Part shown: one piece after another, positions 13,924 through 62,940 of the stretch
How the letters are laid out: each line of letters opens with the position of its first letter
Numbering within the stretch: the stretch's first letter is position 1
Virus record (IMG/VR): IMGVR_UViG_3300047469_000094
Direction: 5' to 3' (one strand)
DNA: 64,000 nucleotides
Source of the DNA: a virus
Lineage: Duplodnaviria; Heunggongvirae; Uroviricota; Caudoviricetes
Made by a program: the position numbers and the translations under genes
The notes under the pieces: model-generated
Told to the model about the DNA's origin: nothing
Databases searched by the model: none
Seen by the model: only the letters and a program-made list of their open reading frames with translations

Positions 13924-14216
13924 TGTGCCACCCCTTGAGCTTCAAGGTAGGTTTCCCGAACTTGGGAAATACGACGATTGATGTTTATCTGAACAAGCCA
14001 AGGCTCCTCCATAGTAAGCACCAATCGATTCAGCTCAACGAACAGACCCCCGATGTCTCTGGCAAGGTTGCGTTCAGTAGTAAGACCGATTGCATACTTG
14101 TTCAGAGACGTGGCGAGTTTCAAAGTGTCTTTAGAAGCTTCATAGTAACGATCACGATTACCGTCAGCTTCTAAGGAATGTGATAACAGATCCAATTCGT
14201 ATTCAGTAAGTTTCAT
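13920..14216 (-). CDS. hypothetical protein
   Basis: 98 aa, translationally coupled to the helicase. Confidence 0.65.
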   Translation of the reverse strand: MKLTEYELDLLSHSLEADGNRDRYYEASKDTLKLATSLNKYAIGLTTERNLARDIGGLFVELNRLVLTMEEPWLVQININRRISQVRETYLEAQGVAQ

Positions 14217-35728: not shown

Positions 35729-35832
35729 CGCTATTAGTCCTGAGTTATTGGGGTTACATAGTGGTTATACCACACTACCCATCAATCGTTAAAATAGACA
35801 CATTAGCTTCCTAGCCGGAAAGTGGATCAACT

Positions 35833-40034: not shown

Positions 40035-40475
40035 ATGACTAACGTCTATCTTGAGAAAATTGCAGCAATGGTCTCTCTGGAAGACGGGGTGTACAACGAC
40101 CCGGATAGGGAGTGGGAGTTTCATGTGACGGATGCGGCTAGACGTCGCATTGCTATATCCCAGTTGCAACCCCACTTCCAAAGTCAGAAGAGTGATGGTG
40201 CTAAAGTTTTCGGAGTAATCGGAGCAGGTCTAGGTGGTTTAATTGGTACATCACCATTGATGGCGAGTTCTTGGAAAGGCAGAGTTCTTAACTCCGTTAT
40301 AGGTGCTGGCATAGGCTATGGTTTGGGTGCTGTATCTGGCATTGGACTGGCCTCCGCAGGAAATGTTCAGACTCTAGACAGTGAATCGGCTACCGAGGGT
40401 CCTGTGAAGAGTTATCTGTATCGGAATCATGTCGCTGGCGATTACTGGCCTTCGATTATTAGGAAGGAAGATTGA
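40035..40475 (+). CDS. NxYLEKxA-tagged glycine-zipper membrane protein
   Basis: MTNVYLEKIAA; GAGLGGLIG and GAGIGYGLG. Confidence 0.75.
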   Translation: MTNVYLEKIAAMVSLEDGVYNDPDREWEFHVTDAARRRIAISQLQPHFQSQKSDGAKVFGVIGAGLGGLIGTSPLMASSWKGRVLNSVIGAGIGYGLGAVSGIGLASAGNVQTLDSESATEGPVKSYLYRNHVAGDYWPSIIRKED

Positions 40476-42067
40476 TGTACAAACTCATTGATAGCAGTTC
40501 ATTCTTCGACGCTGAAGATCTCCAGGTAACTATCCTGAGCGGTCCCGGCATTCAGGAAGAACTGACCAAGGCTGCCGCTGACGATCGAGTCAAATCGTAC
40601 GTCATGGACAACCTAAAGATTCAGCCTGGGAAAATGTATCTGCATATCAATGCGATGGGGGCCGGTGAGTTCTACGGCCCTAACCGCAATGGCGACTACT
40701 TCCCTGAAGAAACTCTGAAGCTCTACTACAAGACTTTTGAGACCTCCCCGGCCCACGTTTTCCGTCACCACATCAACAAAGATCCTGCCCGTGCTATCGG
40801 TCGGGTTATCTTTGCCTTGTACAACGAACGCATGCACCGAGTTGAATTGGTTGCAGAAGTAGATCGCGGTCTTGGTTCTGACGTGGAGAGTCGTATTGCA
40901 GCCGGTGATTTCCCAGCAACATCCATGGCGTGTAAGACACCCTACGATGTTTGCTCTATTTGCCATAACAAAGCCCACACCCGTCAAGAGTACTGCGTCC
41001 ACCTGAAACAACACTTGGGTCGCGTAATGCCGGATGGCCGTCGGGTCATGTCTATTAACTCTGCTCCACTGCGTTTCTTCGACATCAGTATCGTAGTTAA
41101 ACCTGCGGACATCACCAGCTCGGTATTGCAGAAAGTTGCAAACGAAGAGGGTGCAGTATCCTCTGCGTTGCTGGGTGAAGAAGAAGGTCTTAGCTATGGC
41201 GAAGATCGAGTCAAGAAGGCGTCCCTTGCCAAAGTCTCCGAGCTAATCAAAGAGATCGAAGGCTACGTTCAGGGCACTGATAAGAACATGGAGAATATCC
41301 TTGCTCAGATTCAGGACCCAGACATTGAGGATGTTCGTAAGCTCGAATCAGTACCTATGGATGAACTCTTCCAGACCTTCGGGGAACTAGGCATCAGCCC
41401 TAGCCTGAAGTTCCTTGCGGAGATCATTGCATTCCGTATGGGCCACGGCGGTCCTGGAATTGGTTCAAAGGTTCTCAAGGCCCTGCACGAATCAAAGCTT
41501 TCTGGTATTTCTATTCCAGATACTGAGATGAACGTAGATCGTAAAGTGAGTCCTCTGGTTAGTCAGGTACTTAGTAAGTACCAGGACACTAGTTCACTAT
41601 TCCCTGAGTTCGTAGAGAAGCGTGCATACGTTACTACTACTGGTTATTCCGGTATGGGTCCTAAAATCCCTATCAGAGAAGAAGATATTCGTAGAGACCT
41701 GGCTCGCCAGAGACACTTGGCGAATCCTGAACGCACTTTACTTCAGGCTGCTGCGGAGAATCCGATCTCGACTCTTATTGCTATTGGCGGTGCTGCTCTA
41801 TGGGCAAAAGCGTACATTAACTCTATAATCGAGAAGCGTCTCGCTCAGTCCCAGGAACGTAGTATGCCTACCATTGTTAAGATGGCAAGCATGTCTGCTG
41901 CACATGAAATGTCTTTTGAAGATCGTAAGGCTACCGTACCGCTCAAGGCTCTGTCCAAGGCAGTATCTGCGTTACAGTCTCCAAGTAAAGGAAATGCTAA
42001 ATTGACAGTGGCTTTGAAGGTGCTTAGTGCAGCTCATAGTCAAATCGTCAAAGGTAATCCGAGTTAA
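40472..42067 (+). CDS. prohead (maturation) protease
   Basis: NRNGDYF, HVFRHH, ATSMAC, CSICHN..YCVH Zn finger, FFDISIV..PAD; precedes scaffold and capsid genes. Confidence 0.8.
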   Translation: MMYKLIDSSSFFDAEDLQVTILSGPGIQEELTKAAADDRVKSYVMDNLKIQPGKMYLHINAMGAGEFYGPNRNGDYFPEETLKLYYKTFETSPAHVFRHHINKDPARAIGRVIFALYNERMHRVELVAEVDRGLGSDVESRIAAGDFPATSMACKTPYDVCSICHNKAHTRQEYCVHLKQHLGRVMPDGRRVMSINSAPLRFFDISIVVKPADITSSVLQKVANEEGAVSSALLGEEEGLSYGEDRVKKASLAKVSELIKEIEGYVQGTDKNMENILAQIQDPDIEDVRKLESVPMDELFQTFGELGISPSLKFLAEIIAFRMGHGGPGIGSKVLKALHESKLSGISIPDTEMNVDRKVSPLVSQVLSKYQDTSSLFPEFVEKRAYVTTTGYSGMGPKIPIREEDIRRDLARQRHLANPERTLLQAAAENPISTLIAIGGAALWAKAYINSIIEKRLAQSQERSMPTIVKMASMSAAHEMSFEDRKATVPLKALSKAVSALQSPSKGNAKLTVALKVLSAAHSQIVKGNPS

Positions 42068-42141: not shown

Positions 42142-43581
42142 ATGAATTTTGATATCAACCAGCTTATCGCTGATCTGTCCGGTTCGGAAGGTCAAGAGAA
42201 GCAGGCTAGCGAAGCTCCTGAAGTCAACGTTCCGAACGTTGCCGAAGAGCTGCGGTCAGCCCTGATGACTAAGTCTGCTTCCGCCCTTGCCGGTGAAGCT
42301 AGTGACCTAGGCCGTCAACTGGCCCAACGTCTGATGGAGAAAGCTGCATCTGAAGTTGTCGCTGAACCCGAAGTAATTCTGGGCGATAAGCTTTCTGAGC
42401 TTGCTGCTTCCGTACAAACCACTTTGGTCAAAGAAGCCAGCACCGTCGAAGCACAGCCTCATCTTGCTCACCAAGAAAATGCTGAACTCGCCGCTGCCCA
42501 GACCCAAGTAAATGCTAACGCTGAACAAAGCGGTGGCACTGTTGAATCTCAGACAACTGAGTCTATCCAGAAAGGTTTGACCACTCCATCTGCTACCGCT
42601 ACCAGCGAAGACCTCGTTGACCGTGTAGAAGACAACATGCAGAAAGCTGCTGCGGTTACCGAGCTGGTTACCCAAGGCCACTCGTTCTATGATGCTGCTT
42701 CTCTGGTATCTATGGCTGACGAAGAGCTTCAGAAAGAAGCTGCCTTCCACGCTTTGACCGAAGAAGGTTATTCGGTTGACGACGCAGTTGCCCTGATCAA
42801 AGCTGCTTCTGAAGTTGAAGAATCCCAGTACGAAGAAATGGACAAGCAAGCTGCTTTCCAGGGTCTGCTAGATGAAGGCTACCGCTTCGAAGACGCTGCT
42901 GAGATGATCAAAGAAGCTGGTCTAGGTGACCTCGCTAAAGGCGCCCTGAACACCATCAAGGCTAAAGGCGGCGCTGCTGTTGGCGCAGTTAAGGCCGAGG
43001 GTCGCAACCTTAAAGATGACGTCTCTGCGTACAAGTACATGAAGCAGCACTCGCCAGGCGATGCCTCAACCGTCGGTAAAGCTCGTTTGAAAGGTGCCTT
43101 GAAGCGCAACGTTATTCCTCTTAGCGTAGCTGGTGGATCTCTTGCTGCTGGTGCAGTTACCGCAGGTGTAAACAAAGCTATGAGCAAGCAAGCTGCACTG
43201 TCTGAACTTTTGGCCGAAGGTCACTCGTTTGATGATGCAGTTGAACTGGTCAAAGAAGCTAGCGTAGGCTCCACCATTAAAAGTCTTGCTAACAAAGTTG
43301 CAGACCCTCTTCGAAAAGAAGTTGGCCAACTCGGCAAAGATGTGGCTAAATATAAGAGTTTGCGCAAAACCAATCCAACCATGGCTAAAATTCGTGGTAA
43401 GCATATGGCCTCTAACGCTGTTAAGCGTAATAAGGGTAAACTTGCCGTAGCCGGTGGTACTGCTGTTGCAGCCGGTGCTGGCGTAGCAGCTAAAAAAGCT
43501 ATGACCAAAGAAGCCGCCATGAGTGAACTGATGAACGACGGCTACACCTTTAACCAAGCTCTGGCCGCTGTCCAGGCCTAA
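42142..43581 (+). CDS. putative scaffolding/core protein with internal repeats
   Basis: Repeated K[EQ]AA...L..EG[YH]SFDDA; acidic and helical. Confidence 0.7.
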   Translation: MNFDINQLIADLSGSEGQEKQASEAPEVNVPNVAEELRSALMTKSASALAGEASDLGRQLAQRLMEKAASEVVAEPEVILGDKLSELAASVQTTLVKEASTVEAQPHLAHQENAELAAAQTQVNANAEQSGGTVESQTTESIQKGLTTPSATATSEDLVDRVEDNMQKAAAVTELVTQGHSFYDAASLVSMADEELQKEAAFHALTEEGYSVDDAVALIKAASEVEESQYEEMDKQAAFQGLLDEGYRFEDAAEMIKEAGLGDLAKGALNTIKAKGGAAVGAVKAEGRNLKDDVSAYKYMKQHSPGDASTVGKARLKGALKRNVIPLSVAGGSLAAGAVTAGVNKAMSKQAALSELLAEGHSFDDAVELVKEASVGSTIKSLANKVADPLRKEVGQLGKDVAKYKSLRKTNPTMAKIRGKHMASNAVKRNKGKLAVAGGTAVAAGAGVAAKKAMTKEAAMSELMNDGYTFNQALAAVQA

Positions 43582-43597: not shown

Positions 43598-44017
43598 ATG
43601 TCCGATATCCTTATGCAAAACATCCGTGCCCTGATCAAAGAAGCCTCCGAAGGCACTCAGGGTCCTGCTCAACCACAACTGCATCACGCACAGAACGCAG
43701 CTACCGCTGCTGCTCAACAGGCTATCAATGCCTCGGCTCTTCAATCGGGTAACACCATTGAAGGTCAGACTATTGAGTCCCTGCAACGTGGCCTGGCAAC
43801 TCAATCTGCTGAAGTGGTTCCTACCGACCGTGTTGCTGAGCTTCAGAAGGCTGCTGCTCTGAACGAGCTAGTTGAAAGTGGTATGGATTTCTACTCCGCT
43901 TTCGGTCAGGTTGCTGATGCCGATCTGGAGCTTCAGAAAGAAGCTGCTTTCAACGAACTGACCGAAGAAGGTTATTCGTTCGACGACGCTGTTGCTCTGA
44001 TCCAAGCTTCTCTGTAA
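43598..44017 (+). CDS. paralogue of a scaffold segment
   Basis: QTIESLQRGL..QKAAA..ELQKEAAFNELTEEGYSFDDAVALI is nearly identical to part of 42142-43581. Confidence 0.8.
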   Translation: MSDILMQNIRALIKEASEGTQGPAQPQLHHAQNAATAAAQQAINASALQSGNTIEGQTIESLQRGLATQSAEVVPTDRVAELQKAAALNELVESGMDFYSAFGQVADADLELQKEAAFNELTEEGYSFDDAVALIQASL

Positions 44018-44056: not shown

Positions 44057-44434
44057 ATGTCAAACGTATATCTAGAGAAGATCGCTGAAGCGGTACTCCC
44101 TCTTAATCCGAAACGCACAAGTACTGAGAAAACCTTTGCTCTGTCAGAAGGTCTTGGCGTGGCCGCAGGTCTTGCCGGTGGCCTTATAGGCGGGCGTCTA
44201 GGTTCAAAACCTCTGGGTAAACTAATCGCTGCTAAACCAATGGCTCAAGCCATAGGTCGAAAATTGTTCGGTAAGGACGCAGTTATCACAGGTACTCACC
44301 TAGGTAGCGAAGTCGGTGCCCACGTTTTAGGAGCTATCGGTTCTTACGGGGCGATGAAGGGCGTTGCCGCTCTTGATGACTCTCGAAAGAACAAATACCT
44401 TCACAAAGCAGCCGAACTTGTTTCGACGCATTAA
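44057..44434 (+). CDS. NxYLEKxA-tagged glycine-zipper protein
   Basis: MSNVYLEKIAE; GVAAGLAGGLIGG; C-terminal NKYLHKAAE. Confidence 0.75.
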   Translation: MSNVYLEKIAEAVLPLNPKRTSTEKTFALSEGLGVAAGLAGGLIGGRLGSKPLGKLIAAKPMAQAIGRKLFGKDAVITGTHLGSEVGAHVLGAIGSYGAMKGVAALDDSRKNKYLHKAAELVSTH

Positions 44435-45479: not shown

Positions 45480-46367
45480 ATGTACGGTACTGAAACTACT
45501 AACGTTCAATTCCTCAACCAATCGTTCATCGATAAGGTCGATAACGGCATGGAGAAGGAAGCTTCGGTAGCTGCTAGCGCATTCGTGCGTCAGAAGCTTC
45601 GTGAAGACGGCTTTACCCGCAAAATCATGGAACCGCAAATGGTTACCGCTGCTGATCTGGATCGTGGTCTGACCGACGAACCTCAGATCATCATCGAGAA
45701 AGAACCTGATTCGGTAGCAGCCTCGATGGGCTTCCGTGGTCGTGCAGAACTGCGCTACTTCAAAGGCGATCGTTACGCCGTGAACTTCTCGAAGATCGAG
45801 AGTAAAGAGTTCAAGAAGTCGAAGTTCGAACTGGCTACCTACCGCACCGATATCCGCACCGTTCTGCAAGAGAACAGTGTTAAAGATATCCAAAAGGTAG
45901 AAGATACCAGCTTCTACGCTAACGTCCTGGCAATGGCTACCGCTGCTAGCAACGTTTACACCATCTCTGGTGGTTTCAACATGGTCAACTTCCAAGCTGG
46001 CGTGAAGAAACTATTGGCTAAGCAACTGCCTGTCGGCAAGATCCTGATGACTCAGGAAATGTATGCTGACTTCATGGCTCAGCCAGCCACCCAGATCGGT
46101 TCGGACGCAGCTTCGGCTCTGTTCATGGGCCAAACTGGTGTAGCTACCCCGTACGGCAACCAGATCATCGTTACCAACAAGAACGATATCCTGCCGAACA
46201 ACCAGATGATCGTTTTCGCTCCTACCCAGTACCTGGGTCAGATGTACATCATGCAAGACGCGATGGTATATCTGAAGACTGAAGCTGACCTGCTATCCTT
46301 CAAGACTTACGAGTCTGTCGGCATCGGTTTCGGCAACGTCAACGGCGCTGCTGTTATCAACTTCTAA
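45480..46367 (+). CDS. major capsid protein (HK97-fold predicted)
   Basis: Very strong codon bias, position after protease and scaffold, terminator after; EKEAS near the N-terminus. Confidence 0.75.
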   Translation: MYGTETTNVQFLNQSFIDKVDNGMEKEASVAASAFVRQKLREDGFTRKIMEPQMVTAADLDRGLTDEPQIIIEKEPDSVAASMGFRGRAELRYFKGDRYAVNFSKIESKEFKKSKFELATYRTDIRTVLQENSVKDIQKVEDTSFYANVLAMATAASNVYTISGGFNMVNFQAGVKKLLAKQLPVGKILMTQEMYADFMAQPATQIGSDAASALFMGQTGVATPYGNQIIVTNKNDILPNNQMIVFAPTQYLGQMYIMQDAMVYLKTEADLLSFKTYESVGIGFGNVNGAAVINF

Positions 46368-46454: not shown

Positions 46455-47147
46455 ATGTCAAATCCATATCTCGAAAAAGCCGCTTCCATGTATGACTTTT
46501 GGAAGGACTTAACTGGTAAAGAACACAAGGACCTTACGGCCCGGAAGTATCACTTTGAGCGAGCGATTGCCAACAATGATACGGTCGAGGGTCTGACTAA
46601 GCGCATCCACAATTCTGGACAAAGGACCTTCAAGGCCAGAATGAAGACCAGTGGAGGGCTGGCTGCGATTGCTGCTGCCGGTATCTACGGGGCGAGTGCG
46701 TACCGAGAACACCAGAACCGAATAGCCTCAAAGAACATGCAAGAACTCTTCTTGAACAAGCAGGCGGGAGTTGCTTCTAACTCAGTCAGCCTCGCAAAGA
46801 AGACTGTGACCTACGCTAAAAAAGCAGGTAGCTTGGCTGCCAAGGGTACTGCAAAAGTTGTTAACACTGGTCTGGATGTTTTGAACACTGCCAATGGCGG
46901 TAAGATCAAACAAATGGGCTTGGATACTTTCGGGGATAATACTCCTGCTTATCATAAATTCGTCAGCGCCAAAAGAAAGTCTCAAAAAGACATGGTGACT
47001 GGTGCAAACCTTGATAAACTAAAGAAGCTACATGGCCAACAGAGCAAAGCAAGAGTAGGTGCCTACGGTGGAATTGCAGGTATCAGTCTCGCTTACGCCA
47101 ATGGCAAAAAGAAGAGCGAAGCTCTTCCTCAATCGTATTACTACTAA
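46455..47147 (+). CDS. NxYLEKxA-tagged basic protein with two hydrophobic helices
   Basis: MSNPYLEKAAS; internal LFLNKQAG. Confidence 0.75.
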   Translation: MSNPYLEKAASMYDFWKDLTGKEHKDLTARKYHFERAIANNDTVEGLTKRIHNSGQRTFKARMKTSGGLAAIAAAGIYGASAYREHQNRIASKNMQELFLNKQAGVASNSVSLAKKTVTYAKKAGSLAAKGTAKVVNTGLDVLNTANGGKIKQMGLDTFGDNTPAYHKFVSAKRKSQKDMVTGANLDKLKKLHGQQSKARVGAYGGIAGISLAYANGKKKSEALPQSYYY

Positions 47148-49519: not shown

Positions 49520-52129
49520 ATGGCTTACGTAACCCCCTCCGTTTTAGTATACCAACAACTGGAGAACAGCGGTGGCGTACTCAATTCGACCCCGGATCTG
49601 CACGCGTGCATCATTGGCCCTTGCTACACCGAAGTCACTTACGTAGCTGGATCGACTGACGCCTTGGTTCTCACCTCGGCCAAATCGTCAACCACTACTA
49701 CGGGTACCGCAATCGTAGGTAGTAAAGATATTACCGTTGCTTCCATCTCTGGTTTCTTCGCTGGTGACAGCGTGATTCTGGAAGGTGCTGCTGCATCCGC
49801 TGGACCGCTGGCCGCTACCGTAGTTTCTGTTGTAGGTAACGTAGTTACTATCGACACCGCAGTTGTTACCGCAGTTACCAGTTCGCCACTGTCCAAGAAA
49901 GGCCTCTTGGTGAACGCTTCTGTCCCTAACACTTACTCTCTGCCAGGCGTTAAACCAGGCATGGTAGTTGTTGCTCCAGAAACCAAGGTCTACCTGAACA
50001 ACGTCCTGGTTAATACCATGACTACTCAGGCGTCGGGTCACAACCAAGGTAACGTACTGACCGTAACCGCTGCTGCTACCACTGGCGCTGCCACTGCTGC
50101 CGCTTCGACTGTTACTGTTGCAAGTGCTACCGGCTTTGTAATCGGTGATCGTATTACCGTTGCAGGCGCAGGCGCTTCTGGCGTGAACCTCGTTTCGAAG
50201 ATCGTTAACATTGTCGGTTCGGTGATCACCATCGCCACCCCAATCGTTACCACCGTTGCGAGCGCAGCCGTAACCAAGAACAACCCGCTGTCGGTAAACC
50301 CACTGACCAATACCTACGTTGCTGAGCCTGGCGATACCCTGAAAGTTGCTTACACCAACACTTCGGCTGTCTCCTCGATCTTCACTACTCTGGTACAAAG
50401 CGTAACTACTTCGGCTGGTGGTATCACTAACCTGTCGCTGACTGATGCTCTGCCTACCGATCTGAGTGCAAAGACTACTGCTTCTACCGTAGTTAGCACT
50501 GCTGCCATTACTGTTGCAAGCCCAACCGGCTTCAGCGTTAACGGAAAGGTCCGTGTCGTAGGTACTGGCTTCGATATCTACAGCTCCATCGTTGGTATCG
50601 CAGGCTCGGTGTTCACTCTGGCAGATTCCATTCCGGCAACCCAAGCAGGCGTTCAGGTTTACTCCTTGAATACCGCTACTGTGTTCGTCCAGAAGGGTTA
50701 CAGCGATCAACTGCTTCCTCTGAACAAGCCACTGACCACCGGCACCAACTACGCTACTGATGATATCGGCACCTTCTCTCAGTTCACTATCAATGCTGCT
50801 CCTGAACTGGTATACGGCCCAATCATCTCGGCTGAAGTACACGTTGGCTACCGTGCTCTGCGTACTGACCTGGCTGGCACTGTAATGGAAATCGCAGACG
50901 TTAATGACCTGGAAGGCGTACTTGGTGCCCCTACCGTCACTAACCCACTGTCCCTTGGCGTGCAACTGGCTCTAGCCAACACTGCTACCTCGGTTCGCTG
51001 CATCTCCGTTCCGTCGAACGACCTGATCGGTTACCAAGTTGCTCTTGAGCTGGCAGAGAACATGCGTCTATACGCACTGGTTCCACTGACCCAAGACATC
51101 GCAATCATCAACGCTCTGAAAACTCACTGCGACCAACTGTCGGTTCCTGAGAAAGCTTCGTGGCGTGTGGCCCTGATAAACGTTAAGACTCCAGATGCAC
51201 AGTCCATCGGTCAGTACTCTGTTGATTTCCAGAACTCCGCAGCAGGCATCACCATCGATAACATCGCTGGTAAGTTTGTTCTGCACGCAGCCAACGCAGC
51301 TTTCCTGAGCGACGGCATGGTTCCCGGTGACATCATCAACGTTACTGCTGCGACTCCTTCTGGCGCTATCAATACCTACGTTGTTCAGCAGGTAGTCAGC
51401 AACCAGCAAGTAGTAGTAGATGCAACTCAGGCAGCTACCGGTATCACTTACTGGGCTTCCCGCACTCTGACCAAAACTCAGAAGGCAGAATGGGTAGCAG
51501 AGACTTCCGCTCAGTTCAACGACAAGCGTGTGATCAACATCCAGCCGGATACTTGTGGTGTTAGCATCGGCGGTGTTACTCAGTACCTGCCTGGCTACTA
51601 CCTGGCTTGTGCCGTTGCCGGTATGACCGCTGGTTTCGCAGTTCAGCAAGGCTTCACCAACATCGGCCTAGCCGGTATCACCGATCTGAAGCGTAGTAAC
51701 TTCTACTTCACCCGCTCTCAGATGGACCGTATGGCTGAGACTGGTACCTTCTTGATCGTTCAAGACGTACAAGGCGGAACCCCGTATGTTCGCCACGCGA
51801 TGACCACTGATATCTCCGTACTGGAATATCGTGAATTCCTCGTAGTGAAGAACTGGGACTTCCTGAGCTACTACTTCTACGATAAGTTGAAGCCGTTCAT
51901 TGGTAGCTGGAACATCACCACCGATACCCTGAACAACATTCGTCAGACCATTACCGCTTCTGCTGAACTGCTGAAGTCTAAGAAACTGCCGAAGATCGGG
52001 CCTCCGTTGGTTGACTACAAGCTGACCAGTATTGCTCAGAGCACCGTCAACAAAGATAACATTGATGTCCGCCTGAACATCTCGGTCGTGTACCCGAACA
52101 ACTACACCAACCTTTACCTGATCATCTAA
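49520..52129 (+). CDS. contractile tail sheath protein
   Basis: C-terminal sheath core (YLACAVAG..GFTN...GTFLIVQ...YVRHAMTTD..EFLVVKNWDF); followed by the tube gene. Confidence 0.85.
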   Translation: MAYVTPSVLVYQQLENSGGVLNSTPDLHACIIGPCYTEVTYVAGSTDALVLTSAKSSTTTTGTAIVGSKDITVASISGFFAGDSVILEGAAASAGPLAATVVSVVGNVVTIDTAVVTAVTSSPLSKKGLLVNASVPNTYSLPGVKPGMVVVAPETKVYLNNVLVNTMTTQASGHNQGNVLTVTAAATTGAATAAASTVTVASATGFVIGDRITVAGAGASGVNLVSKIVNIVGSVITIATPIVTTVASAAVTKNNPLSVNPLTNTYVAEPGDTLKVAYTNTSAVSSIFTTLVQSVTTSAGGITNLSLTDALPTDLSAKTTASTVVSTAAITVASPTGFSVNGKVRVVGTGFDIYSSIVGIAGSVFTLADSIPATQAGVQVYSLNTATVFVQKGYSDQLLPLNKPLTTGTNYATDDIGTFSQFTINAAPELVYGPIISAEVHVGYRALRTDLAGTVMEIADVNDLEGVLGAPTVTNPLSLGVQLALANTATSVRCISVPSNDLIGYQVALELAENMRLYALVPLTQDIAIINALKTHCDQLSVPEKASWRVALINVKTPDAQSIGQYSVDFQNSAAGITIDNIAGKFVLHAANAAFLSDGMVPGDIINVTAATPSGAINTYVVQQVVSNQQVVVDATQAATGITYWASRTLTKTQKAEWVAETSAQFNDKRVINIQPDTCGVSIGGVTQYLPGYYLACAVAGMTAGFAVQQGFTNIGLAGITDLKRSNFYFTRSQMDRMAETGTFLIVQDVQGGTPYVRHAMTTDISVLEYREFLVVKNWDFLSYYFYDKLKPFIGSWNITTDTLNNIRQTITASAELLKSKKLPKIGPPLVDYKLTSIAQSTVNKDNIDVRLNISVVYPNNYTNLYLII

Positions 52130-52299
52130 TGGATAATCGGTATCTAGAGAAGGCGGCTTCGATCCTGAAGCTGCCGGTTACTAAGGTTGGTGGAGCTGCC
52201 GGTCTCATTCGGTCTGCGGGCTCAATGAAACGTAATTTCGGGTTTCACTCAATGGCCAAAACGCCGTTGATCCAACGAATCAAAGCTTCTCTTCACTAA
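52129..52299 (+). CDS. NxYLEKxA-tagged small basic protein (56 aa, not in ORF track)
   Basis: Hand translation MDNRYLEKAASILKLPVTKVGGAAGLIRSAGSMKRNFGFHSMAKTPLIQRIKASLH; ATG overlaps the sheath stop. Confidence 0.75.
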   Translation: MDNRYLEKAASILKLPVTKVGGAAGLIRSAGSMKRNFGFHSMAKTPLIQRIKASLH

Positions 52300-53038: not shown

Positions 53039-53839
53039 TTACAGGTATTTCTTCGGAATCTTGGAGATGATCTCTTCTTTCCAGAGGTACTTGTCTCGGG
53101 CACCTTGGCCACGATCTTTGGTCTTACCGACCACCTCCGCCATTCTCATGGCTTTCTGGGTTGGGGCATACCGATTGGCTACCCGAGTGTGATAGCCGAG
53201 AACTTCAAAGATTGCGTTCAAACGAGATGCCGTAACCCCAAGCTTGTTCGCCAACTTTGCAGTTGAGAAGAGATGGCTTTTCACAGGTTCACGAGCAGGT
53301 TTACTGAGAACCGGAGCGGCAATCGCAGGTACTTGTGGCCTGGAGGTATGAAGCTCTTTCCGAATATCCGCCATGTCACTTCGCAAAGTTTCGAACGCTG
53401 CAAGGACCTGAGTCAGAACACTGACGGGGACTTGAGCTTCGGAAACGTGTACGAACTCCTTCTTACGGAGGCCTGGTAAAAGCACAGAGGTGACCCACTT
53501 TTTAAAGCGTTTTGCTTCTGGCTTACGACTGCGGAGGATGGCTGAGTAGAGTCCGGACTCGTTAATCGCCAGCATTTCCAGGGGTCCGCGTATGGTACTC
53601 ACAATCTGAGTACCTATGTCCTCCTCATCAAGGTTCCGGACCATGTTGGTTGAATCCCGGTAATCTAGGGCCTTTGCAACGTCACTTGCGACAAACCATG
53701 GAGATCCTCCGTGAGTAGCAGTTCGGACCTCGTTACCTTCAAAATCGAAAATGCCTAGGGCGTTGTTATCTGGAACAGCTAAAGCAAGTTGGTTCATTGG
53801 TAAGGTCTCGTAGAGAATAGTAGTGAGGTTCTTCCTCAA
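53039..53839 (-). CDS. BRO-N domain (antirepressor-like) protein
   Basis: FDFEGNEVR....PWFVASDVAKALDY...INESGLYSAILRSRKPEAKRFKKWVT; C-terminal ANT/KilAC-like segment. Confidence 0.9.
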   Translation of the reverse strand: MRKNLTTILYETLPMNQLALAVPDNNALGIFDFEGNEVRTATHGGSPWFVASDVAKALDYRDSTNMVRNLDEEDIGTQIVSTIRGPLEMLAINESGLYSAILRSRKPEAKRFKKWVTSVLLPGLRKKEFVHVSEAQVPVSVLTQVLAAFETLRSDMADIRKELHTSRPQVPAIAAPVLSKPAREPVKSHLFSTAKLANKLGVTASRLNAIFEVLGYHTRVANRYAPTQKAMRMAEVVGKTKDRGQGARDKYLWKEEIISKIPKKYL

Positions 53840-54187: not shown

Positions 54188-55042
54188 ATGACTAAGAACC
54201 CCTACCTGGAGAAACAGTCTGGCCTCTTGGCTGGTACTGCCATTTCTCACCTTGCACAGAACATCGCTACCAACCAAGCTCTCAAGAGTAAGAAGGTTGC
54301 GAAGTACCTCGCCAACTCTTTTACTGAGGGATACCACGGTGTAGTAAACAAATCGCTTAAGGCCAAGGCTGCGAGGAGTGCAACGTCGGTAATTACTCCA
54401 GACGTGGCTGCGGCTCACACTGCTGCTCACGAGGCAGGGGGTCATCTCAGCGAGGTTCTTCATGGTGCTACCAAACGTCAACGAGCTGCTGCACGAATGG
54501 CTGTAGAAGGTAAGTTCGATACGCTTAAGAAACTGAATATGCACGAGGACCCCGTAGTTAAGGCGGTTCACGGAGTTCTTCAGAAGCACCTGCCGACGAT
54601 CAAAAACCTTAGCGATAAGCACTTGGGTGAGTTGTCAAAACTGTGGAAGGACAAAAGCCATCCGTTGCTCAGTAACATTGCTAAGAACATCGGTCATGGT
54701 AAGGTCCCGGTAGGATCTAACTTTGTTCCAGGCAAGCACACTCAGGCACTGCCTTTGCTAAGCTCAATATCAGTGGCTCCTATTGAGCCGGGTGCTGCTA
54801 TTCTCGACGGTGCAAAAGCTCTTGCAGGAAGCAAGGCTGTTCAAGGAAACAAATACGGTAAAAAAGCCGTAGATTTCCTCAAGAAGACTTTCATCACCAA
54901 CCCTCTCAAACATGGTGCAGAGTCTAAGGTTCCGGTAGGCGGCTTTAAGCATGAAGCGTATAAGTATCTAGGTAACCCTACTTCTGCACACCTAAAAAGA
55001 ACCGCCGCTGCAATATCGCACGCGACGGGTTCTTCTACTTAG
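54188..55042 (+). CDS. NxYLEK-tagged basic protein
   Basis: MTKNPYLEKQSG; late motif 14 nt upstream. Confidence 0.8.
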   Translation: MTKNPYLEKQSGLLAGTAISHLAQNIATNQALKSKKVAKYLANSFTEGYHGVVNKSLKAKAARSATSVITPDVAAAHTAAHEAGGHLSEVLHGATKRQRAAARMAVEGKFDTLKKLNMHEDPVVKAVHGVLQKHLPTIKNLSDKHLGELSKLWKDKSHPLLSNIAKNIGHGKVPVGSNFVPGKHTQALPLLSSISVAPIEPGAAILDGAKALAGSKAVQGNKYGKKAVDFLKKTFITNPLKHGAESKVPVGGFKHEAYKYLGNPTSAHLKRTAAAISHATGSST

Positions 55043-57074: not shown

Positions 57075-58079
57075 TTACCCAGGCTGGTGTTGGTAAGGAG
57101 TTGATCGGTTGATCACTTCCCAATCCGTGCATGCCCCTTGGAATCGTTCGATGAGTTTCGAAGACCCTTCAGGGTTTAGCTGTCCAAACCAGTTGAGCTT
57201 GCCACGAACTCTCATTAAGAATTCGTTTGCGGTGAGACCGGTCTTAGACGCTTCTGCTTCCAGACCATTTTTAACACTGTTGTGAACGACGGCTCTTAAC
57301 CGAAGACGCTCGTTCCGGAGGAGATTCACCTTCTCGTTCACAACGGTACCGCACACATACAAACGACTGCGTCGAGTACCTTTCTTCATTACTTTCGTCT
57401 TAGCCTTATTGACCCGGAAGCCAAAGCCGACGAGAACCCCAGACACGAACTCGATAGCTTCTTGGGCGTTGAAGTCTGCCTTCGAAGAAATCGTGATGTC
57501 ATCTGCGTAGATGGTAAGGGCCAGGCCCCTGTCTTCGCAGAACTTCTTTACCACAGGCCCGAAAGTCCTAGAGGCAACCACGTTGCTAATCTTTGGACTG
57601 GTCAATCCACCCTGCGGAACATTTGGCCCTAAGGTCATAAGCTCCGACAAGGTGCGGGCCGGAGACTCTCCGAAGCCGACGCTTTGCATCAAGTCTTTCA
57701 GAACGTTTTGCTTAATGCTCGGAAAGTAGTCCTTGATGTCAAGGCTTACAACTTGCAAGCTACCCTCATGCATCTTCGCCATGACCGGGATAGATTTGTC
57801 CCGTTCGAAAGCGTAAATGTAATCCGGGATCTCGAAGTACTTCTCTAGGACCTCCTTCAAGATTCGGAACTGCAACAAACGCATGAGATTGCTTGGGTTG
57901 TAAACGACCCTATAACCACCCTTCTTCGGAATCTTCAGAAGCTTGTAGTGATCGGATTTGTTCTTCGAAGCATACGTCAGCGTCGCTGAGCTCTGCACTC
58001 TGAGAAGTTTCGATAGTTCGCGGTTCGATTGAGGCATCGAGTTCTCCAAGGGTTGCTTCTGGCAATCCAAGGTGATCAA
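57075..58079 (-). CDS. retron-type reverse transcriptase
   Basis: Y..KIPKKGG.R.VYNP, MAKMH (NAxxH-like), VPQGGLTSPKISN, IYADDITIS, FRVNKAKT, VCG (VTG-like); start at TTG 58079 or ATG 58037, both with GGAG; frame open to 58187. Confidence 0.9.
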   Translation of the reverse strand: MITLDCQKQPLENSMPQSNRELSKLLRVQSSATLTYASKNKSDHYKLLKIPKKGGYRVVYNPSNLMRLLQFRILKEVLEKYFEIPDYIYAFERDKSIPVMAKMHEGSLQVVSLDIKDYFPSIKQNVLKDLMQSVGFGESPARTLSELMTLGPNVPQGGLTSPKISNVVASRTFGPVVKKFCEDRGLALTIYADDITISSKADFNAQEAIEFVSGVLVGFGFRVNKAKTKVMKKGTRRSRLYVCGTVVNEKVNLLRNERLRLRAVVHNSVKNGLEAEASKTGLTANEFLMRVRGKLNWFGQLNPEGSSKLIERFQGACTDWEVINRSTPYQHQPG

Positions 58080-58407
58080 GGTTCCCTCCAAGGAGGAGAG
58101 TTGCTTCCTCAATTGAGAGTCGTCGAACGGGTCTTGCGTCGATTCTTCGACGGTAGATGTCACGAGGGAAGACAGCATAGAAACCACTCCGAACAGATCC
58201 GATATTCTTCAAGTAGATAACGCCAAGGCGCACTACTCCTACATGCTTTTCAAGAGGAACGAACCCCGCGTTGTTAGGGGTCCCCGTGACCACTGCGTAT
58301 TTCTCGTAGTGGCCTGCCTCGGAGTTAAAACACATAAGACCCTTGTGAGGTCGAAGACATTTCAACGTATCCCGAGGTGAAGCGGTGGTGCTAGGGCGAA
58401 TCGCCAT
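57910..58407 (-). CDS. RT-associated hypothetical protein (overlaps the RT 5' end)
   Basis: AGGAGG RBS; 165 aa; acidic C-terminal tail encoded in the overlap. Confidence 0.7.
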   Translation of the reverse strand: MAIRPSTTASPRDTLKCLRPHKGLMCFNSEAGHYEKYAVVTGTPNNAGFVPLEKHVGVVRLGVIYLKNIGSVRSGFYAVFPRDIYRRRIDARPVRRLSIEEATLLLGGNLDHLGLPEATLGELDASIEPRTIETSQSAELSDADVCFEEQIRSLQASEDSEEGWL

Positions 58408-59137: not shown

Positions 59138-59195
59138 GTGTTGTTATCCATATCTCTTATACCAATCAAGGTAGGGTCGCCGTTAAAATAGAAAA

Positions 59196-60704
59196 ATGAA
59201 GAATCCAACCCCAGTACTTTTCGTTAGACAGAAGCACGACGCTAAGCGAGCGGGGCTTCACTACGATTACAGAATCGTAATTGATGACAAAGCTTTTTCG
59301 TGGGCGTCTAAAAAGGAGTTCCCAGAAGTAGGTAAACCTACGATCCTCTGGGAGCAACCTGTGCATGACGCCAAGTACGCCACTACTCCAAGCATCGTTA
59401 TCCCTGACGGTCAGTACGGGGCAGGTACCCAAGTAATAGACTACGCTCAGAAAGGTAGTTCCCAGACAATCAACAATGACTATCACTTAGAGTTAAACAA
59501 CGGTGATCGTTTCTTAATCAAAAAAGCCCCTGAACATTACGGTGAGAAGGCTTGGCTATTTCTCAGGAAGAAAGCGTTGGACGACAAGAACCCCTACCTT
59601 GAAAAGGCCGCTGCTGCTAAGAACAACGATGCGTCCGTAGCGATGGAAGGCTATGGAGGTCTGGCCCTTGCAGCAAGTTCCAAGTACCTTGGCAAGAAAG
59701 TGGCTGGGAAAATGAAGCCTGCTATTGAGCTGCATCGTGAAAACTATATGGCTAAGGCAAAAGCTGCTGGAAAGCCGTTTTCAAAAGGATACATGTCTGA
59801 GCTGGTGACCGGGGCCACTACGAACTCGAAGATGGTAGATCGTGCAAATATTGCGGCCAAGGTAACTCGCAAGGTAGCTATCGGTACAGGTGTGGCCATG
59901 ATAGGACATGCGGCCTACCGAGCGTATAAGGGGCATGATAAAAAGGCGAGCGAGTCTAACGTCTTCTTGGAGAAGGTAGCTAAGAAACGTGAACCGGGTG
60001 ACGGAGCACGAGAATTTATCGTAGGCGGTATCGGTGCTCACTTGACCACCAAGGCTCCCGGTAAACTCCTTGGGTATCACACCGCCTATCACGGTACCTC
60101 CAAAGAGAACGCAAAGAACATTCTGAAGAACGGTCTTAATAAGGCTCACGGTGGTACCAGGGGTTCGATAATCTCTCATGCTGGCCAGTCCGCTCAAGAT
60201 CATTTCGTAAACAATGCTAAGAACCACGTATACATGACTCGCAGCAAACTCGTGGGGATGACCTTTGCGGGTGACAGTGCTAAGCACATCAACGATGCAG
60301 GCGGTGCTACTGGGAAGGCAACGATTAACGCAGTGAAGGACGGTCTTAAAAACGGAAAGGTTTTGAAAGCAAGACTGTCCCACAACCAGTGGAATAAAGG
60401 CTTTAAGATGGACCCGGATTCGTTTGATATGATGACTCGGATAAGTAACCCTGAACACCTCCTGAAACACACGGCAGCCAGGTCCAGGAAGAACATTGGT
60501 GCGAACCAGTTTGCAGGCGGGGAAGGTAATAAAGGCATTGCCCGTTTCGCTACCAAGAATAACCTACGCAGATACTACGGCTCTAAAACCGGTAAAGCCC
60601 GTGCAGCCCTAGGCGCACTTCAACTGGTAGGCGGTGCTGCTATGGCAGTAGGTGCAGTAGCTCATAACCGTCATACTGGCGGCGTACTTTCGGATAAGAA
60701 GTGA
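59196..60704 (+). CDS. Tripartite protein: LigD-type 3'-phosphoesterase, membrane module and ADP-ribosyltransferase-like domain
   Basis: FVRQKHDAKRAGLHYDYRI...GQYGAG (PE); linkers NPYLEKAA (59589) and NVFLEKVA (59958); YHGTS..NAKNILKNGL...VYMT (ART). Confidence 0.8.
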   Translation: MKNPTPVLFVRQKHDAKRAGLHYDYRIVIDDKAFSWASKKEFPEVGKPTILWEQPVHDAKYATTPSIVIPDGQYGAGTQVIDYAQKGSSQTINNDYHLELNNGDRFLIKKAPEHYGEKAWLFLRKKALDDKNPYLEKAAAAKNNDASVAMEGYGGLALAASSKYLGKKVAGKMKPAIELHRENYMAKAKAAGKPFSKGYMSELVTGATTNSKMVDRANIAAKVTRKVAIGTGVAMIGHAAYRAYKGHDKKASESNVFLEKVAKKREPGDGAREFIVGGIGAHLTTKAPGKLLGYHTAYHGTSKENAKNILKNGLNKAHGGTRGSIISHAGQSAQDHFVNNAKNHVYMTRSKLVGMTFAGDSAKHINDAGGATGKATINAVKDGLKNGKVLKARLSHNQWNKGFKMDPDSFDMMTRISNPEHLLKHTAARSRKNIGANQFAGGEGNKGIARFATKNNLRRYYGSKTGKARAALGALQLVGGAAMAVGAVAHNRHTGGVLSDKK

Positions 60705-61450
60705 TGAATATCTACTTGGAGAAAATTGCTTCAACTGAAAAGAAGAGAGACCACATACACGGGTGGACCCGCACCGGTACGGTCATTGGGACGACTGCGG
60801 GGGCCATAGCCCTATCCACCCCGATAAACCATGGACTGGTACGAGCCGCACACAAAGGTCTGGCAGGGAACTCCGCAGTTACGGAGTCAGACGTAAACTC
60901 CTATCGGAAAAGTAAAAACCTACGCCATGTCATTAGGGGCGGTAATGGGATGTTCGACCATGAGCTTGCTGCTCACTACCTCCCTCCTGGATTCAGGGGG
61001 GTAAAGCGTCCAACCGTAAATGCTAAAGGTGCTGACCTTGCAATGCATGAATATGGCCATGCCCATAGCTTCAACAAGTATCGGAAGGCCATCGGTGGAA
61101 AAGGCGTCAGGGGTAAATTCATAATGCACTCCCTTTCTCAAAGATCGGCTCTTGGTCTAGGGGCATTGGTGGGAGGTTACGCTGCTACTTCTGATAACGA
61201 GAAAGTTCGAAAGGCAGCCCCGTACGCAGTCGCTGCTTCTGCGATACCAATGCTAGCGGAAGAGGCTCAAGCATCTCTCAGCCCTGCAAAACACCTCCTG
61301 AAGACTCGTGGTGCCAGCGTGGCTAAAAAGTTCCTCAAGAAAATGGCCCCTGCATACGGTACGTACTTAGCTGCTACTGCAACTGGTGTAGGCGCAGCTT
61401 CTTGGGCGAAGCATGTAAAGAACAAGGCTATTGAAAAGGCGAACAAGTAA
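60701..61450 (+). CDS. NxYLEKxA-tagged membrane zinc metallopeptidase (YugP/Zn_peptidase_2-like)
   Basis: MNIYLEKIAS; HEYGH; downstream EEAQAS and AYGTYL. Confidence 0.7.
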   Translation: MMNIYLEKIASTEKKRDHIHGWTRTGTVIGTTAGAIALSTPINHGLVRAAHKGLAGNSAVTESDVNSYRKSKNLRHVIRGGNGMFDHELAAHYLPPGFRGVKRPTVNAKGADLAMHEYGHAHSFNKYRKAIGGKGVRGKFIMHSLSQRSALGLGALVGGYAATSDNEKVRKAAPYAVAASAIPMLAEEAQASLSPAKHLLKTRGASVAKKFLKKMAPAYGTYLAATATGVGAASWAKHVKNKAIEKANK

Positions 61451-61996
61451 ATGACCAACGTCTACCTAGAGAAACTAGCAGGACACTACCAAGATCTCAA
61501 AGACTACCGTAAGAATCTCAACCGAGAAGCTGACGAGATCTACCACCGTGATTGGGCAGGACACATTCCAGGCCGTATATCTCAGAAGGCTATCGCTGAC
61601 TTCCGTGATGAGACTTACGTAGATGAGAACGGTGACGTTGTAACGCCCGATCTGAATGGTCTAGTCCGTGATCGAATGAAGACTCGGCACATAAACGCCA
61701 CCATAGAAAGGGACTACGGTAGTGACGTGGTCAGAAAGGCAGACGGTCTTGCTCATAACGGTGCTTCCTGGAAAGGTGCAGGAGCAATGCTATTGGGTGG
61801 TATCGGAGGTGCATCTGCGGCAAGGCTGCTGACCAAGCATCCGTTGGTAATCATGGGTGCAGGTATCACAGGTATGGGTCTTGGTGCTTACTCTGCTACT
61901 AAGCATGCTCTTGGCCGTGGCGAAGAGAAGGCGGATGAATACCTAGAAGGCGTTCATAACCAATATTTGCAGAAAGCAGCTTCTCTTTCTAAATGA
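61451..61996 (+). CDS. NxYLEKxA-tagged glycine-zipper membrane protein
   Basis: MTNVYLEKLAG; two Gly-rich helices; C-terminal NQYLQKAAS. Confidence 0.75.
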   Translation: MTNVYLEKLAGHYQDLKDYRKNLNREADEIYHRDWAGHIPGRISQKAIADFRDETYVDENGDVVTPDLNGLVRDRMKTRHINATIERDYGSDVVRKADGLAHNGASWKGAGAMLLGGIGGASAARLLTKHPLVIMGAGITGMGLGAYSATKHALGRGEEKADEYLEGVHNQYLQKAASLSK

Positions 61997-62940
61997 CCAA
62001 TACTTCTCCAGGTACTACAATGAACTCACCACATCCAAACCCGTACCTGGAGAAATCTGCTTCTATGCATTCCCGTGCTAAATACAACGACACTTTCAAG
62101 AAAGGTAGTGATGACAAACCAAAGCTATCGTCATTGAAATATGATGGCGCTTCGTATTTTCTATGCTATGACCGTTATGGAATCCCTACGTTTGTTTCTC
62201 GTAGGCCTTCCGTTTCAGGAGAGATCATTGAGAAGGCTGACCGAGTTCCTCACTTGGCCAAGACTTTGCTGTCTCAGGCAGGAAAGGTTTACAACGTAGA
62301 GCTTATTCATACAGGTCACGATCCGTATGCCCCGGAGTCACATGCCCGAGTATCTGGCCTACTTAACTCTCTTCCTGAGCGTTCTATTAGGGAGCAGTCT
62401 CAAGACGGTCCTATCCGTGCTGTAGTCTTCGACATGATCGAACCTAAGGTAAGTACCTTCAACGATAAGCTTCCTCACATACAAGGATTGATCTCTGATT
62501 TCGGAGATACCAATCTCATGTTCCATCCTGAGTATGCTCATGGTGTGGAGGGGATGAACGCTCTCATTGAGAAATCTAAAAAAGAAGGCCGTGAAGGCGT
62601 CATAACCCTTGATCCTACTGCTCCAGAGGCAAAGAACCCGAGGGTTAAACTTAAGCATAAGAACCACTACAATCTAAAGGTCAAAGCCATTCTTCAAGAG
62701 AAGGATATCTCCGGTAAGCCTAAGCCTAGTGCGGGTGCTCTCCTGTTGGAAGATGCTACCGGACGTGAGGTTGGCAAGGTGGGTACGGGGTTTGACCGTA
62801 GAACCAGAGAAGACATTTTCAAACACCCTAACGCTTGGTTAAACAAGCTGATCCAGGTTGAGGCGATGACGCCTACTGGTACAAAACTACGTCAGCCTGT
62901 CTACAACGGAGATGCTGACGGTGAACTGGATACTGTATGA
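61993..62940 (+). CDS. NxYLEKxA-tagged ATP-dependent DNA ligase
   Basis: NPYLEKSAS; KYDG (motif I), NVEL (III), VFD (IIIa), EGV (IV), VKLK (V), OB-fold KVGTGF. Confidence 0.9.
   Translation: MTNTSPGTTMNSPHPNPYLEKSASMHSRAKYNDTFKKGSDDKPKLSSLKYDGASYFLCYDRYGIPTFVSRRPSVSGEIIEKADRVPHLAKTLLSQAGKVYNVELIHTGHDPYAPESHARVSGLLNSLPERSIREQSQDGPIRAVVFDMIEPKVSTFNDKLPHIQGLISDFGDTNLMFHPEYAHGVEGMNALIEKSKKEGREGVITLDPTAPEAKNPRVKLKHKNHYNLKVKAILQEKDISGKPKPSAGALLLEDATGREVGKVGTGFDRRTREDIFKHPNAWLNKLIQVEAMTPTGTKLRQPVYNGDADGELDTV

Follow-up and report, generated by a model that had tools for sequence, protein, structure and literature searches.

A LigD-type 3'-phosphoesterase and an ATP-dependent DNA ligase share a peptide tag with the head-assembly module of an uncultured tailed phage

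Introduction

Why does a tailed phage encode a LigD-type 3'-phosphoesterase (PE) together with an ATP-dependent DNA ligase, and might the two enzymes travel in its virion? The question is raised by positions 59196-62940 of a 64,000-nucleotide stretch of viral DNA (Caudoviricetes; IMG/VR record IMGVR_UViG_3300047469_000094), hereafter the window. A 98%-identical protein on a contig of 165,460 nt indicates that the window is part of an uncultured phage of ~165 kb. An earlier note, made from the sequence alone, had proposed that both enzymes are tagged and enter the cell with the genome as a DNA end-repair kit. Our results show that PE and ligase carry a short peptide tag that is common to genes of the head-assembly module. 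Tag-mediated delivery of the two enzymes in the virion would be the best explanation of this pattern, although we hold it tentatively.

Phosphoesterase and ligase

The first gene of the region (59196-60704, + strand) encodes a 502-aa polyprotein with a net charge of +40, which consists of PE, a tag, a Gly/Ala-rich spacer, a second tag, a domain with an ADP-ribosyltransferase (ART) fold and a hydrophobic tail. The PE domain occupies aa 1-130 (59196-59585, +). Pfam LigD_N matches residues 12-90 (E 4.2e-8), and residues 6-125 match the solved archaeal PE 3p43 (phmmer, E 4.9e-9), with further matches to 5dmp, 3p4h, 3n9b and 2lj6. Mutagenesis of CkoPE identified H9, H15, D17, R19, H51 and Y55 as essential (Smith et al.; PMC3082917). 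Two His and the Asp of this site bind Mn, whereas an Arg and a His bind the phosphate, and a Tyr is also part of the site (PMC3082917). The equivalents in the window are H14, H22, D24, R26, H57 and Y61, and none of the six varies among 15 phage homologues (36-73% identity). Judged by these residues, the PE looks catalytically intact and seems to be active. The LigD motifs that the earlier note had read in the first ~130 aa are thus borne out by the six catalytic residues and by the search with the LigD_N model that it had suggested, which gave 33.8 bits against a cut-off of 31.1.

Stand-alone archaeal PEs (CkoPE, 3P43; MbaPE, 3P4H) have the same minimal barrel of ~120-130 residues. CkoPE is the best match by sequence among solved structures, and its metal and phosphate ligands are identical to those of the phage enzyme. 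The difference is that the phage PE leads a tag-linked polyprotein, of which it is always the N-terminal unit in this phage group. In most lineages of relatives a tag follows PE at aa 124-166, and in one phage the PE gene stops shortly after this tag. The module behind it varies, and can be an SNF2 ATPase (L009, L013), an HExxH module (fusions P0248, P0252 and P0253) or the ligase; in the clade of the window it is the spacer, the second tag and the ART-fold domain. PHROGs v4 and the cultured-phage collection (tblastn) gave no match to PE, and a full-text literature search for a phage-encoded LigD phosphoesterase also found none.

The ligase (61993-62940, +; 315 aa) has a nucleotidyltransferase (NTase) domain followed by an OB domain, and matches phrog_114, ATP-dependent DNA ligase (2.9e-20). 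Its adenylation residue is K49 (62137-62139). A profile built from 26 sequences matched only DNA ligases in the PDB, and the ligases of relatives have weak matches to Pfam OB_2 and PF01068. Across the 26 homologues K49-x-D51-G52, R70, E103, E201-G202 and K244 are invariant and K219 is nearly so; in the longer blocks K49-Y-D51-G52, S69-R70-R71, E103, F146-D147, E201-G202 and K219-x-K221, every residue is invariant or nearly invariant. In our own reading of the alignment, these residues would represent motifs I, Ia, III, IIIa, IV and V.

An AlphaFold model of the ligase (pLDDT 90.0) places NTase before OB, with the tag as a separate short helix of residues 17-24. Its Foldseek matches include T4 DNA ligase (3.2e-15), Pmar-Lig (1.1e-14) and Lig E (1e-13; TM 0.74 by target), and further the ligases of African swine fever virus (ASFV), a Rhizobium phage and Chlorella virus. 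All 50 matches listed are DNA ligases and none is an RNA ligase. The ligase domains of LigD (1vs0, 6nhx) were matched as well, but rank 22nd and lower. Conserved residues and predicted fold together suggest that the ligase is catalytically intact and active. The nearest ligase of a cultured phage, that of the T4-like Vibrio phage nt-1, is only ~27% identical.

In its NTase + OB architecture and NTase motifs, the phage ligase is like other minimal DNA ligases (T4 gp30 core, Lig E, Chlorella virus, Rhizobium phage 9FZX; Foldseek E 1e-13 to 3e-15). It differs from them in its N-terminal tag, in the extra domains of relatives, in an acidic tail Y-N-G-D-A-D-G-x-x-D and in its location in a late operon. 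The tail (62896-62940, +) reads V-Y-N-G-D-A-D-G-x-x-D-x-V and is nearly invariant in the ligase family, with G306, D309, G310 and D313 fully invariant. Possibly, it is a docking or metal-binding motif; we know of no such tail in characterised ligases. The closest ligase relatives (P0005-P0023) have an additional N-terminal domain of 120 aa (residues 1-120; D-L-T-P-E-Q-M..G-V-L-S-G-K-Y), followed by the tag and then the ligase. This domain has no Pfam match, and the sole lead, DUF6321/DUF3140, came from a language-model search.

Pairing in related phages

In 28 of 29 related loci, the ligase is preceded on its own strand by a PE motif, at a distance of 0-5.5 kb. The lone exception has just 6 bases of upstream sequence, so that all 28 informative loci are paired. 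Both enzymes are single-copy in each of five related genomes, four of which are 92-100% complete. Among the 120 ligase homologues listed, P0032 and P0033 are fusions in the order PE-tag-ligase. Near-direct fusions of PE and ligase also occur, either without a tag (P0105) or with a degenerate copy at most (P0057, P0085 and P0091). PE and ligase are therefore functionally coupled, as a pair that is conserved across the phage group and fused in some of its members.

The obvious comparison is with LigD (PE-LIG-POL), which together with Ku serves bacterial non-homologous end joining (NHEJ) and likewise pairs a PE, with the same six residues, with an ATP-dependent ligase. The order PE-then-ligase is shared, and in phages the two sometimes form a single polypeptide. 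In contrast to the LigD/Ku system, the relatives lack the other NHEJ components. Our scans, which covered the five related genomes (four at least 92% complete) but not every ORF of the window, found Ku (Pfam), Mu Gam (Pfam) and the LigD primase-polymerase (PF21686) in none of the five, and no NAD-dependent ligase either. The earlier claim that Ku and a polymerase domain are missing thus holds for these relatives, and extends to the window only as far as the scan covered its ORFs. Moreover, the phage ligase is nearest to the T4, Pmar, Lig E and Chlorella-virus types by Foldseek, and phage PE and ligase are usually separate genes, joined by the tag and with other enzymes between them. The low rank of the LigD ligase domains suggests that the phage pairing was probably assembled independently and is convergent with LigD. 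From its sequence, the module would do the work of PE and LIG in LigD, yet with neither Ku nor Pol it would not be an NHEJ system.

Weak PF01068 matches elsewhere in the relatives were considered as a second DNA ligase and rejected, because they belong to a Pnkp-type RNA repair enzyme, whose gene is the one further ligase-like gene of these genomes. This enzyme of ~810 aa (L037:1602-4022, - strand, in G002; L038:397-2838, + strand, in G001) is encoded far from the PE-ligase block. It combines an AAA_33 kinase, a calcineurin-like phosphoesterase and a PNKP_ligase domain (1e-27 to 1e-30), and hence provides complete RNA end-healing and sealing.

The tag

Ten instances of N-x-[YF]-L-E-K, the core of the tag N-x-[YF]-L-E-K-x-A, are present in the window, each in a real ORF of the + strand, between 40 and 62 kb. 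In 200 shuffles it appeared 0.06 times on average and twice at most. The tag reported in the earlier note is therefore real. Synonymous codons vary freely at every one of its positions, so it is the protein sequence that is conserved. We considered and rejected a DNA or RNA signal at the starts of genes, given this synonymous variation and the presence of tags inside ORFs as well. Eight of the copies are N-terminal, and many more are found in relatives on unrelated domains; overall, tags occupy N-termini, junctions between domains and some of the C-termini. A profile of 96 distinct copies recovered four more degenerate copies in the window, only in late ORFs of the + strand. Two degenerate copies are C-terminal, one of which scores below the control. 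In relatives the logo reads M-[MST]-N-[KPRV]-Y-L-E-K-[IAVL]-A (118 distinct copies). A full-text literature search for the string YLEKIA gave unrelated matches only.

In the polyprotein, the tag NPYLEKAA (aa 132-139; 59589-59612, +) comes straight after the PE barrel, and NVFLEKVA (aa 255-262; 59958-59981, +) precedes the ART-fold domain. The earlier description of a PE that ends in the tag was right about the first copy and missed the second. It also had the ligase start with the tag. The copy in the ligase, NPYLEKSA, is indeed close to the N-terminus, at aa 16-23 (62038-62061), or at 7-14 if Met10 is the start, but it is not the N-terminus itself. In untagged orthologues of the ligase, the first residue is precisely the Met that comes next after the tag in tagged ones, and the tag is therefore a separable unit.

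In four complete or near-complete relatives, 22 of the 24 strict tags fall in the head module (protease, capsid) or in the PE-ligase block, whereas a reversed control pattern gave none. The head module of the window shows the same association. Its head maturation protease (40475-42067, +; phrog_18299, 4.5e-8; phrog_2774, 1.4e-18) has a catalytic domain of aa 1-214, which ends in an invariant tag-like SSVLQKVAS before a variable linker in an alignment of six homologues. The V-L-Q-K-V-A-S junction would fit self-cleavage at a tag-like site, which we regard as no more than a lead. Directly upstream of the protease lies a gene for a tagged 146-aa Gly-zipper protein (40035-40475, +), and tagged genes take this position in relatives too. 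Other tagged late genes are located at 44057-44434, 46455-47147, 52129-52299 and 54188-55042 (all +). The tagged proteins are very basic (net charges of +22 to +40) and have many Gly/Ala zipper-like segments. A predicted complex of protease aa 1-214 with tagged ligase aa 1-45 scored 0.01, which speaks neither for nor against binding.

The major capsid protein (45480-46367, +; 295 aa; phrog_2522 major head protein, 1.6e-15) has in its N-arm, at residues 13-21 (45516-45542, +), the motif N-Q-S-F-[IL]-D-K-[IV]-D, conserved in six genomes. This motif resembles the tag core [YF]-[LI]-[ED]-K-[IV]. As a further lead, the tag may mimic a scaffold-binding arm of the capsid protein. An acidic, scaffold-like protein (42142-43581, +) contains at least five copies of a ~30-aa module, (K/Q)(E/Q)AA(F/L/M)..L..EGY.F.DA..LIK, and the next small ORF (43598-44017, +) contains two more. 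Possibly, these modules are repeated helix-turn-helix units that bind capsid or cargo. The scaffold-like protein has no family match, and its only match in cultured phages is partial.

One relative has three consecutive tagged genes (L040:9166-11394, +), which encode proteins of 280 aa, 234 aa (ART-like) and 228 aa, between its RNA polymerase beta and beta' genes. These polymerase genes adjoin the head module and lie on the same strand.

Operon and accompanying modules

The region 59196-62940 opens a single late operon of the + strand. From 59196 to the end of the window, the + strand genes abut or overlap one another, with ORFs of 502, 248, 181 and 315 aa and then two further ORFs; family searches with the genes 3' of the ligase gave none. 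The promoter-like 11-mer GTTAAAATAGA (59182-59192, +) lies 4 nt before the PE start codon. It has two exact copies in the window, this one and another at 35788, ahead of the head operon. With at most one mismatch there are six copies, all on the + strand, intergenic and preceding late operons, and we infer that GTTAAAATAGA acts as a late promoter. The earlier assignment of both enzymes to the late class stands only by way of this motif, which the PE operon has in common with the head operon. The early motif TGGTATAAG lies on the opposite strand of the intergenic region upstream of PE, where it faces a reverse-transcriptase operon. A scan of the region for sigma-70 promoters found sites rarer than in shuffles.

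The earlier reading of these genes missed a wider kit, which comprises the ART-fold domain, an HExxH zincin and, in relatives, an SNF2 ATPase. The ART-fold domain spans aa 287-451 of the polyprotein (60054-60548, +) and contains an invariant H-G-T (YHGT). It is modelled by AlphaFold with a pLDDT of 90.6, and all top matches of Foldseek and VIA-align belong to the ART superfamily, at Foldseek E values of 9e-3 or weaker and Z of at most 7.3. The NAD lobe of Tpt1/KptA gives the best Z (7.3); next come Rhs ART toxins, pertussis S1, Arr, scabin and DarT. The family to which this domain belongs counts 108 homologue clusters, mostly stand-alone proteins of 210-260 aa with the tag at the start; H-G-T and one Asp are invariant. 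The hydrophobic, Gly/Ala-rich segment at the C-terminus of the polyprotein (aa 472-488; 60609-60659, +; Kyte-Doolittle mean 1.75 over 17 residues) is conserved in this family.

The next gene (60704-61450, +; tag at 60707-60730) encodes a tagged, basic protein of 248 aa with an invariant HEYGH (aa 115-119) and E186-E187. It has no Pfam or PHROG family, and its motifs suggest that it is probably a small gluzincin-like metallopeptidase. It is followed by a tagged 181-aa protein (61451-61996, +; tag at 61457-61480) with two Gly-zipper-like segments and a degenerate C-terminal copy, NQYLQKAAS, at 61958. From PE to ligase, every unit of the region has the tag before it or is linked by it. An SNF2 gene in the window (14213-15979, -) was considered as the counterpart of the tagged SNF2 of relatives and rejected, since it is a different paralogue with 25% identity.

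Several neighbouring genes are worth recording. The reverse transcriptase (RVT_1, 1.2e-19; 57075-58187, -) belongs to a minus-strand operon that diverges from the PE operon, and the order of reverse transcriptase and then PE is also kept in L001 and L004. Between the ligase block and the terminase gene, relatives have a ThiF (E1-like) gene (L001:13370-16098, L003:3956-6427 and L004:13622-14893, all -). A Prok-JAB gene adjoins it in L001 and L003, and L004 shows ThiF only. ThiF and Prok-JAB could be a pair for ubiquitin-like conjugation or deconjugation; the counterpart of this region in the genome of the window falls past the window end. Elsewhere in the window, three ORFs (28006-29307, +; 33813-35111, -; 53039-53839, -) are associated as a set with an HNH or homing endonuclease between split RNA polymerase genes (phrog_559, 3.8e-52), a glutathionylspermidine synthase (phrog_6215, 4.6e-91) and an Ant/Bro-type anti-repressor within the tail region (phrog_130, 1.3e-43).

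Proposed delivery in the virion

What might the tag do? The closest parallel comes from phage T4, whose internal proteins are highly basic and whose capsid-targeting sequence (CTS) reads MKTYQEFIAE (PMC8442874). Residues 4 and 7 of the CTS serve targeting and residues 8 and 10 serve processing, and T4 Alt is a packaged ART (PMC9026906). The tag consensus MNKYLEKIAE is alike at 6 of 10 positions (M1, Y4, E6, I8, A9, E10), among them one targeting residue, Tyr4, and both processing residues, Ile8 and Glu10. As in IPI-III and Alt, an N-terminal peptide of ~10 residues is found on unrelated basic late proteins, with an ART-fold enzyme among them, and as in T4 the tagged genes are interleaved with scaffold and protease genes. 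However, the phage is not recognisably T4-like, given its 295-aa capsid protein and a protease that lacks a Peptidase_S77 match. Its tag also has invariant N, Y, L, E, K and A rather than the L/I-x-E cleavage motif of the CTS.

A second parallel is offered by the polyvalent proteins, for which ART, zincin and SNF2 are hallmark domains and whose packaging and injection have been proposed (Iyer et al., 2017; PMC5512222). Like phage P1 DarB and other polyvalent proteins, the multi-enzyme polypeptides of these phages combine ART, zincin-like metallopeptidase and SNF2 ATPase modules. For instance, PE and an ART-fold domain share one 502-aa protein in the window, and relatives have PE-SNF2, PE-zincin and PE-ligase fusions. 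The modules differ from those of polyvalent proteins in that they are small and separated by a conserved tag instead of being seamlessly fused, and in that the same modules are separate tagged genes in sister phages. LigD does not occur in that survey, and where it uses the words 'ligase' and 'phosphoesterase', the few passages listed refer to RNA ligases and 2H phosphoesterases (PMC5512222).

Based on the likeness to the T4 CTS, the very basic cargo and the polyvalent-like domain repertoire, virion delivery is a reasonable, if tentative, suggestion. The tag, like the T4 CTS, would anchor basic proteins in the scaffolding core of the procapsid. It would also mark the cut sites of the head protease, which would split the polyproteins into single enzymes. 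These enzymes would stay in the DNA-filled head until the next infection and then exit with the genome. In the new cell, the Mn-dependent PE would clear nicks and ends of the phage DNA of 3'-phosphates or 3'-ribonucleotides, after which the ligase, possibly already adenylated, would seal the healed ends. The absence of Ku and the LigD polymerase makes nicks and annealed ends the likely substrates, rather than the blunt double-strand breaks of true NHEJ. In its full form, the proposal is that this lineage preloads its capsid with ligase and PE, plus ART, zincin or SNF2, by means of a portable 8-residue address-and-cleavage code, in order to mend the incoming genome before expression. We consider this full scheme possible, with a little more reserve than delivery as such.

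Several observations weigh against delivery. About two thirds of the 120 ligase homologues listed are untagged, and in L001 neither PE nor ligase has a tag of its own, even though the genes between them are tagged. Unlike the T4 CTS, the tag is also found at internal and C-terminal positions, as an inter-domain linker, and tags reading I-A-E are a minority (position +8 is E in 16 of 118). The protease has no Pfam match at E <=0.05, Peptidase_S77 included, and no match by sequence to a solved chain. Cultured phages offer little for comparison, as blastn with the region found no relatives at the DNA level, and tblastn with PE and with a member of the ART-like family gave no matches. In four complete or near-complete relatives, the ligase is the sole DNA ligase of the NTase+OB type. 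Finally, restriction and Cas nucleases mostly leave 3'-OH ends, which need no PE, and the breaks that the earlier note had named as targets are the least supported part of its proposal. Ends with a 3'-phosphate or 3'-ribonucleotide, as in nicks of virion DNA, damage and products of metal-independent nucleases, are more likely substrates of PE.

Alternative explanations

The alternative that survives best is a late role in the cell, in DNA maturation or replication. PE and ligase would then mend nicks with 3'-phosphates or 3'-ribonucleotides in concatemers before or during packaging, and maybe also join Okazaki fragments. The tag would be a proteolytic linker, or an assembly motif that brings the enzymes to the procapsid or packaging site, and the enzymes would not be ejected as functional cargo. 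A sole DNA ligase, with no NAD-dependent ligase beside it in the complete relatives, may be needed in the cell for replication or DNA maturation, and the prevalence of untagged orthologues points the same way. T4 requires its ligase to remove nicks that block packaging. The late-type expression signals of the operon and the position of the block within ~10 kb of the terminase gene in relatives would also suit such a role. On the other hand, the ligase gene sits in a late operon, interleaved with genes for basic, tagged Gly-zipper proteins, and one would look for a replicative ligase in the early or middle replication region instead. PE works on 3' ends, whereas Okazaki fragments carry their RNA primers at the 5' end. 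In the clade of the window, moreover, both enzymes carry the tag of the head module, and the domains that accompany them (ART, zincin, SNF2) are ones that injected effectors typically have (PMC5512222). On balance, we consider a purely intracellular role less likely than delivery in the virion, though it deserves serious attention.

Alternatively, the tag might dock proteins on a hub unrelated to the capsid, for example a sliding clamp, the RNA polymerase of the phage, a replication compartment or the membrane, and thereby recruit PE, ligase and SNF2 to phage DNA in the cell. Ligases and repair enzymes are often tethered to clamps by short motifs at their termini or in linkers, and the tagged genes between the two RNA polymerase genes of one relative would agree with such a hub. 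Yet, the tag resembles no clamp-binding motif known to us, and most tagged proteins are not DNA enzymes but small, basic Gly-zipper proteins encoded in the head module. The scan with the tag profile found no tags in the early or replication part of the window, and docking of this kind appears improbable.

The last alternative is an RNA repair kit, comparable to the T4 Pnkp/Rnl1 counter-defence or to fungal tRNA ligase with Tpt1, in which PE would heal the 2',3'-cyclic phosphates or 3'-phosphates left by anticodon nucleases or HEPN RNases, the Tpt1-like domain would remove or modify a 2'-phosphate and the ligase would seal. This reading draws on the top structural rank of the Tpt1/KptA NAD lobe and on a weak Pfam match to Tpt1/KptA over the YHGT motif (E 0.048), but we consider it very improbable: the ligase has the NTase+OB form and only DNA ligases among its structural matches listed, the ART-fold domain has no counterpart of the lobe with which the N-terminus of Tpt1 binds RNA and is not a fixed partner, since SNF2 or zincin replaces it in relatives, the relatives already possess the Pnkp-type enzyme, and characterised PEs act on DNA primer ends (PMC3082917).

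Implications

If the tag is a packaging signal, phages would inject DNA-repair enzymes too, which would be a new class of cargo for counter-defence or genome maintenance. The known injected cargo of phages includes inhibitors and modifiers such as T4 IPI and Alt, P1 Dar and the polymerases of N4 and phiKZ. To our knowledge, this would be the first phage with a DNA ligase in its head, should packaging be confirmed. The tag would then be a compact and portable signal of 8 residues outside the T4 family, which could be used for loading foreign proteins into capsids. The phages would also provide a natural PE-ligase pair that operates without Ku or polymerase, which bears on the role of the widespread stand-alone PE proteins. 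Should the enzymes act in the cell alone, their strict pairing and independent fusions still imply that 3'-end healing and sealing is a selected function, and one that would span this whole group of 150-185 kb phages.

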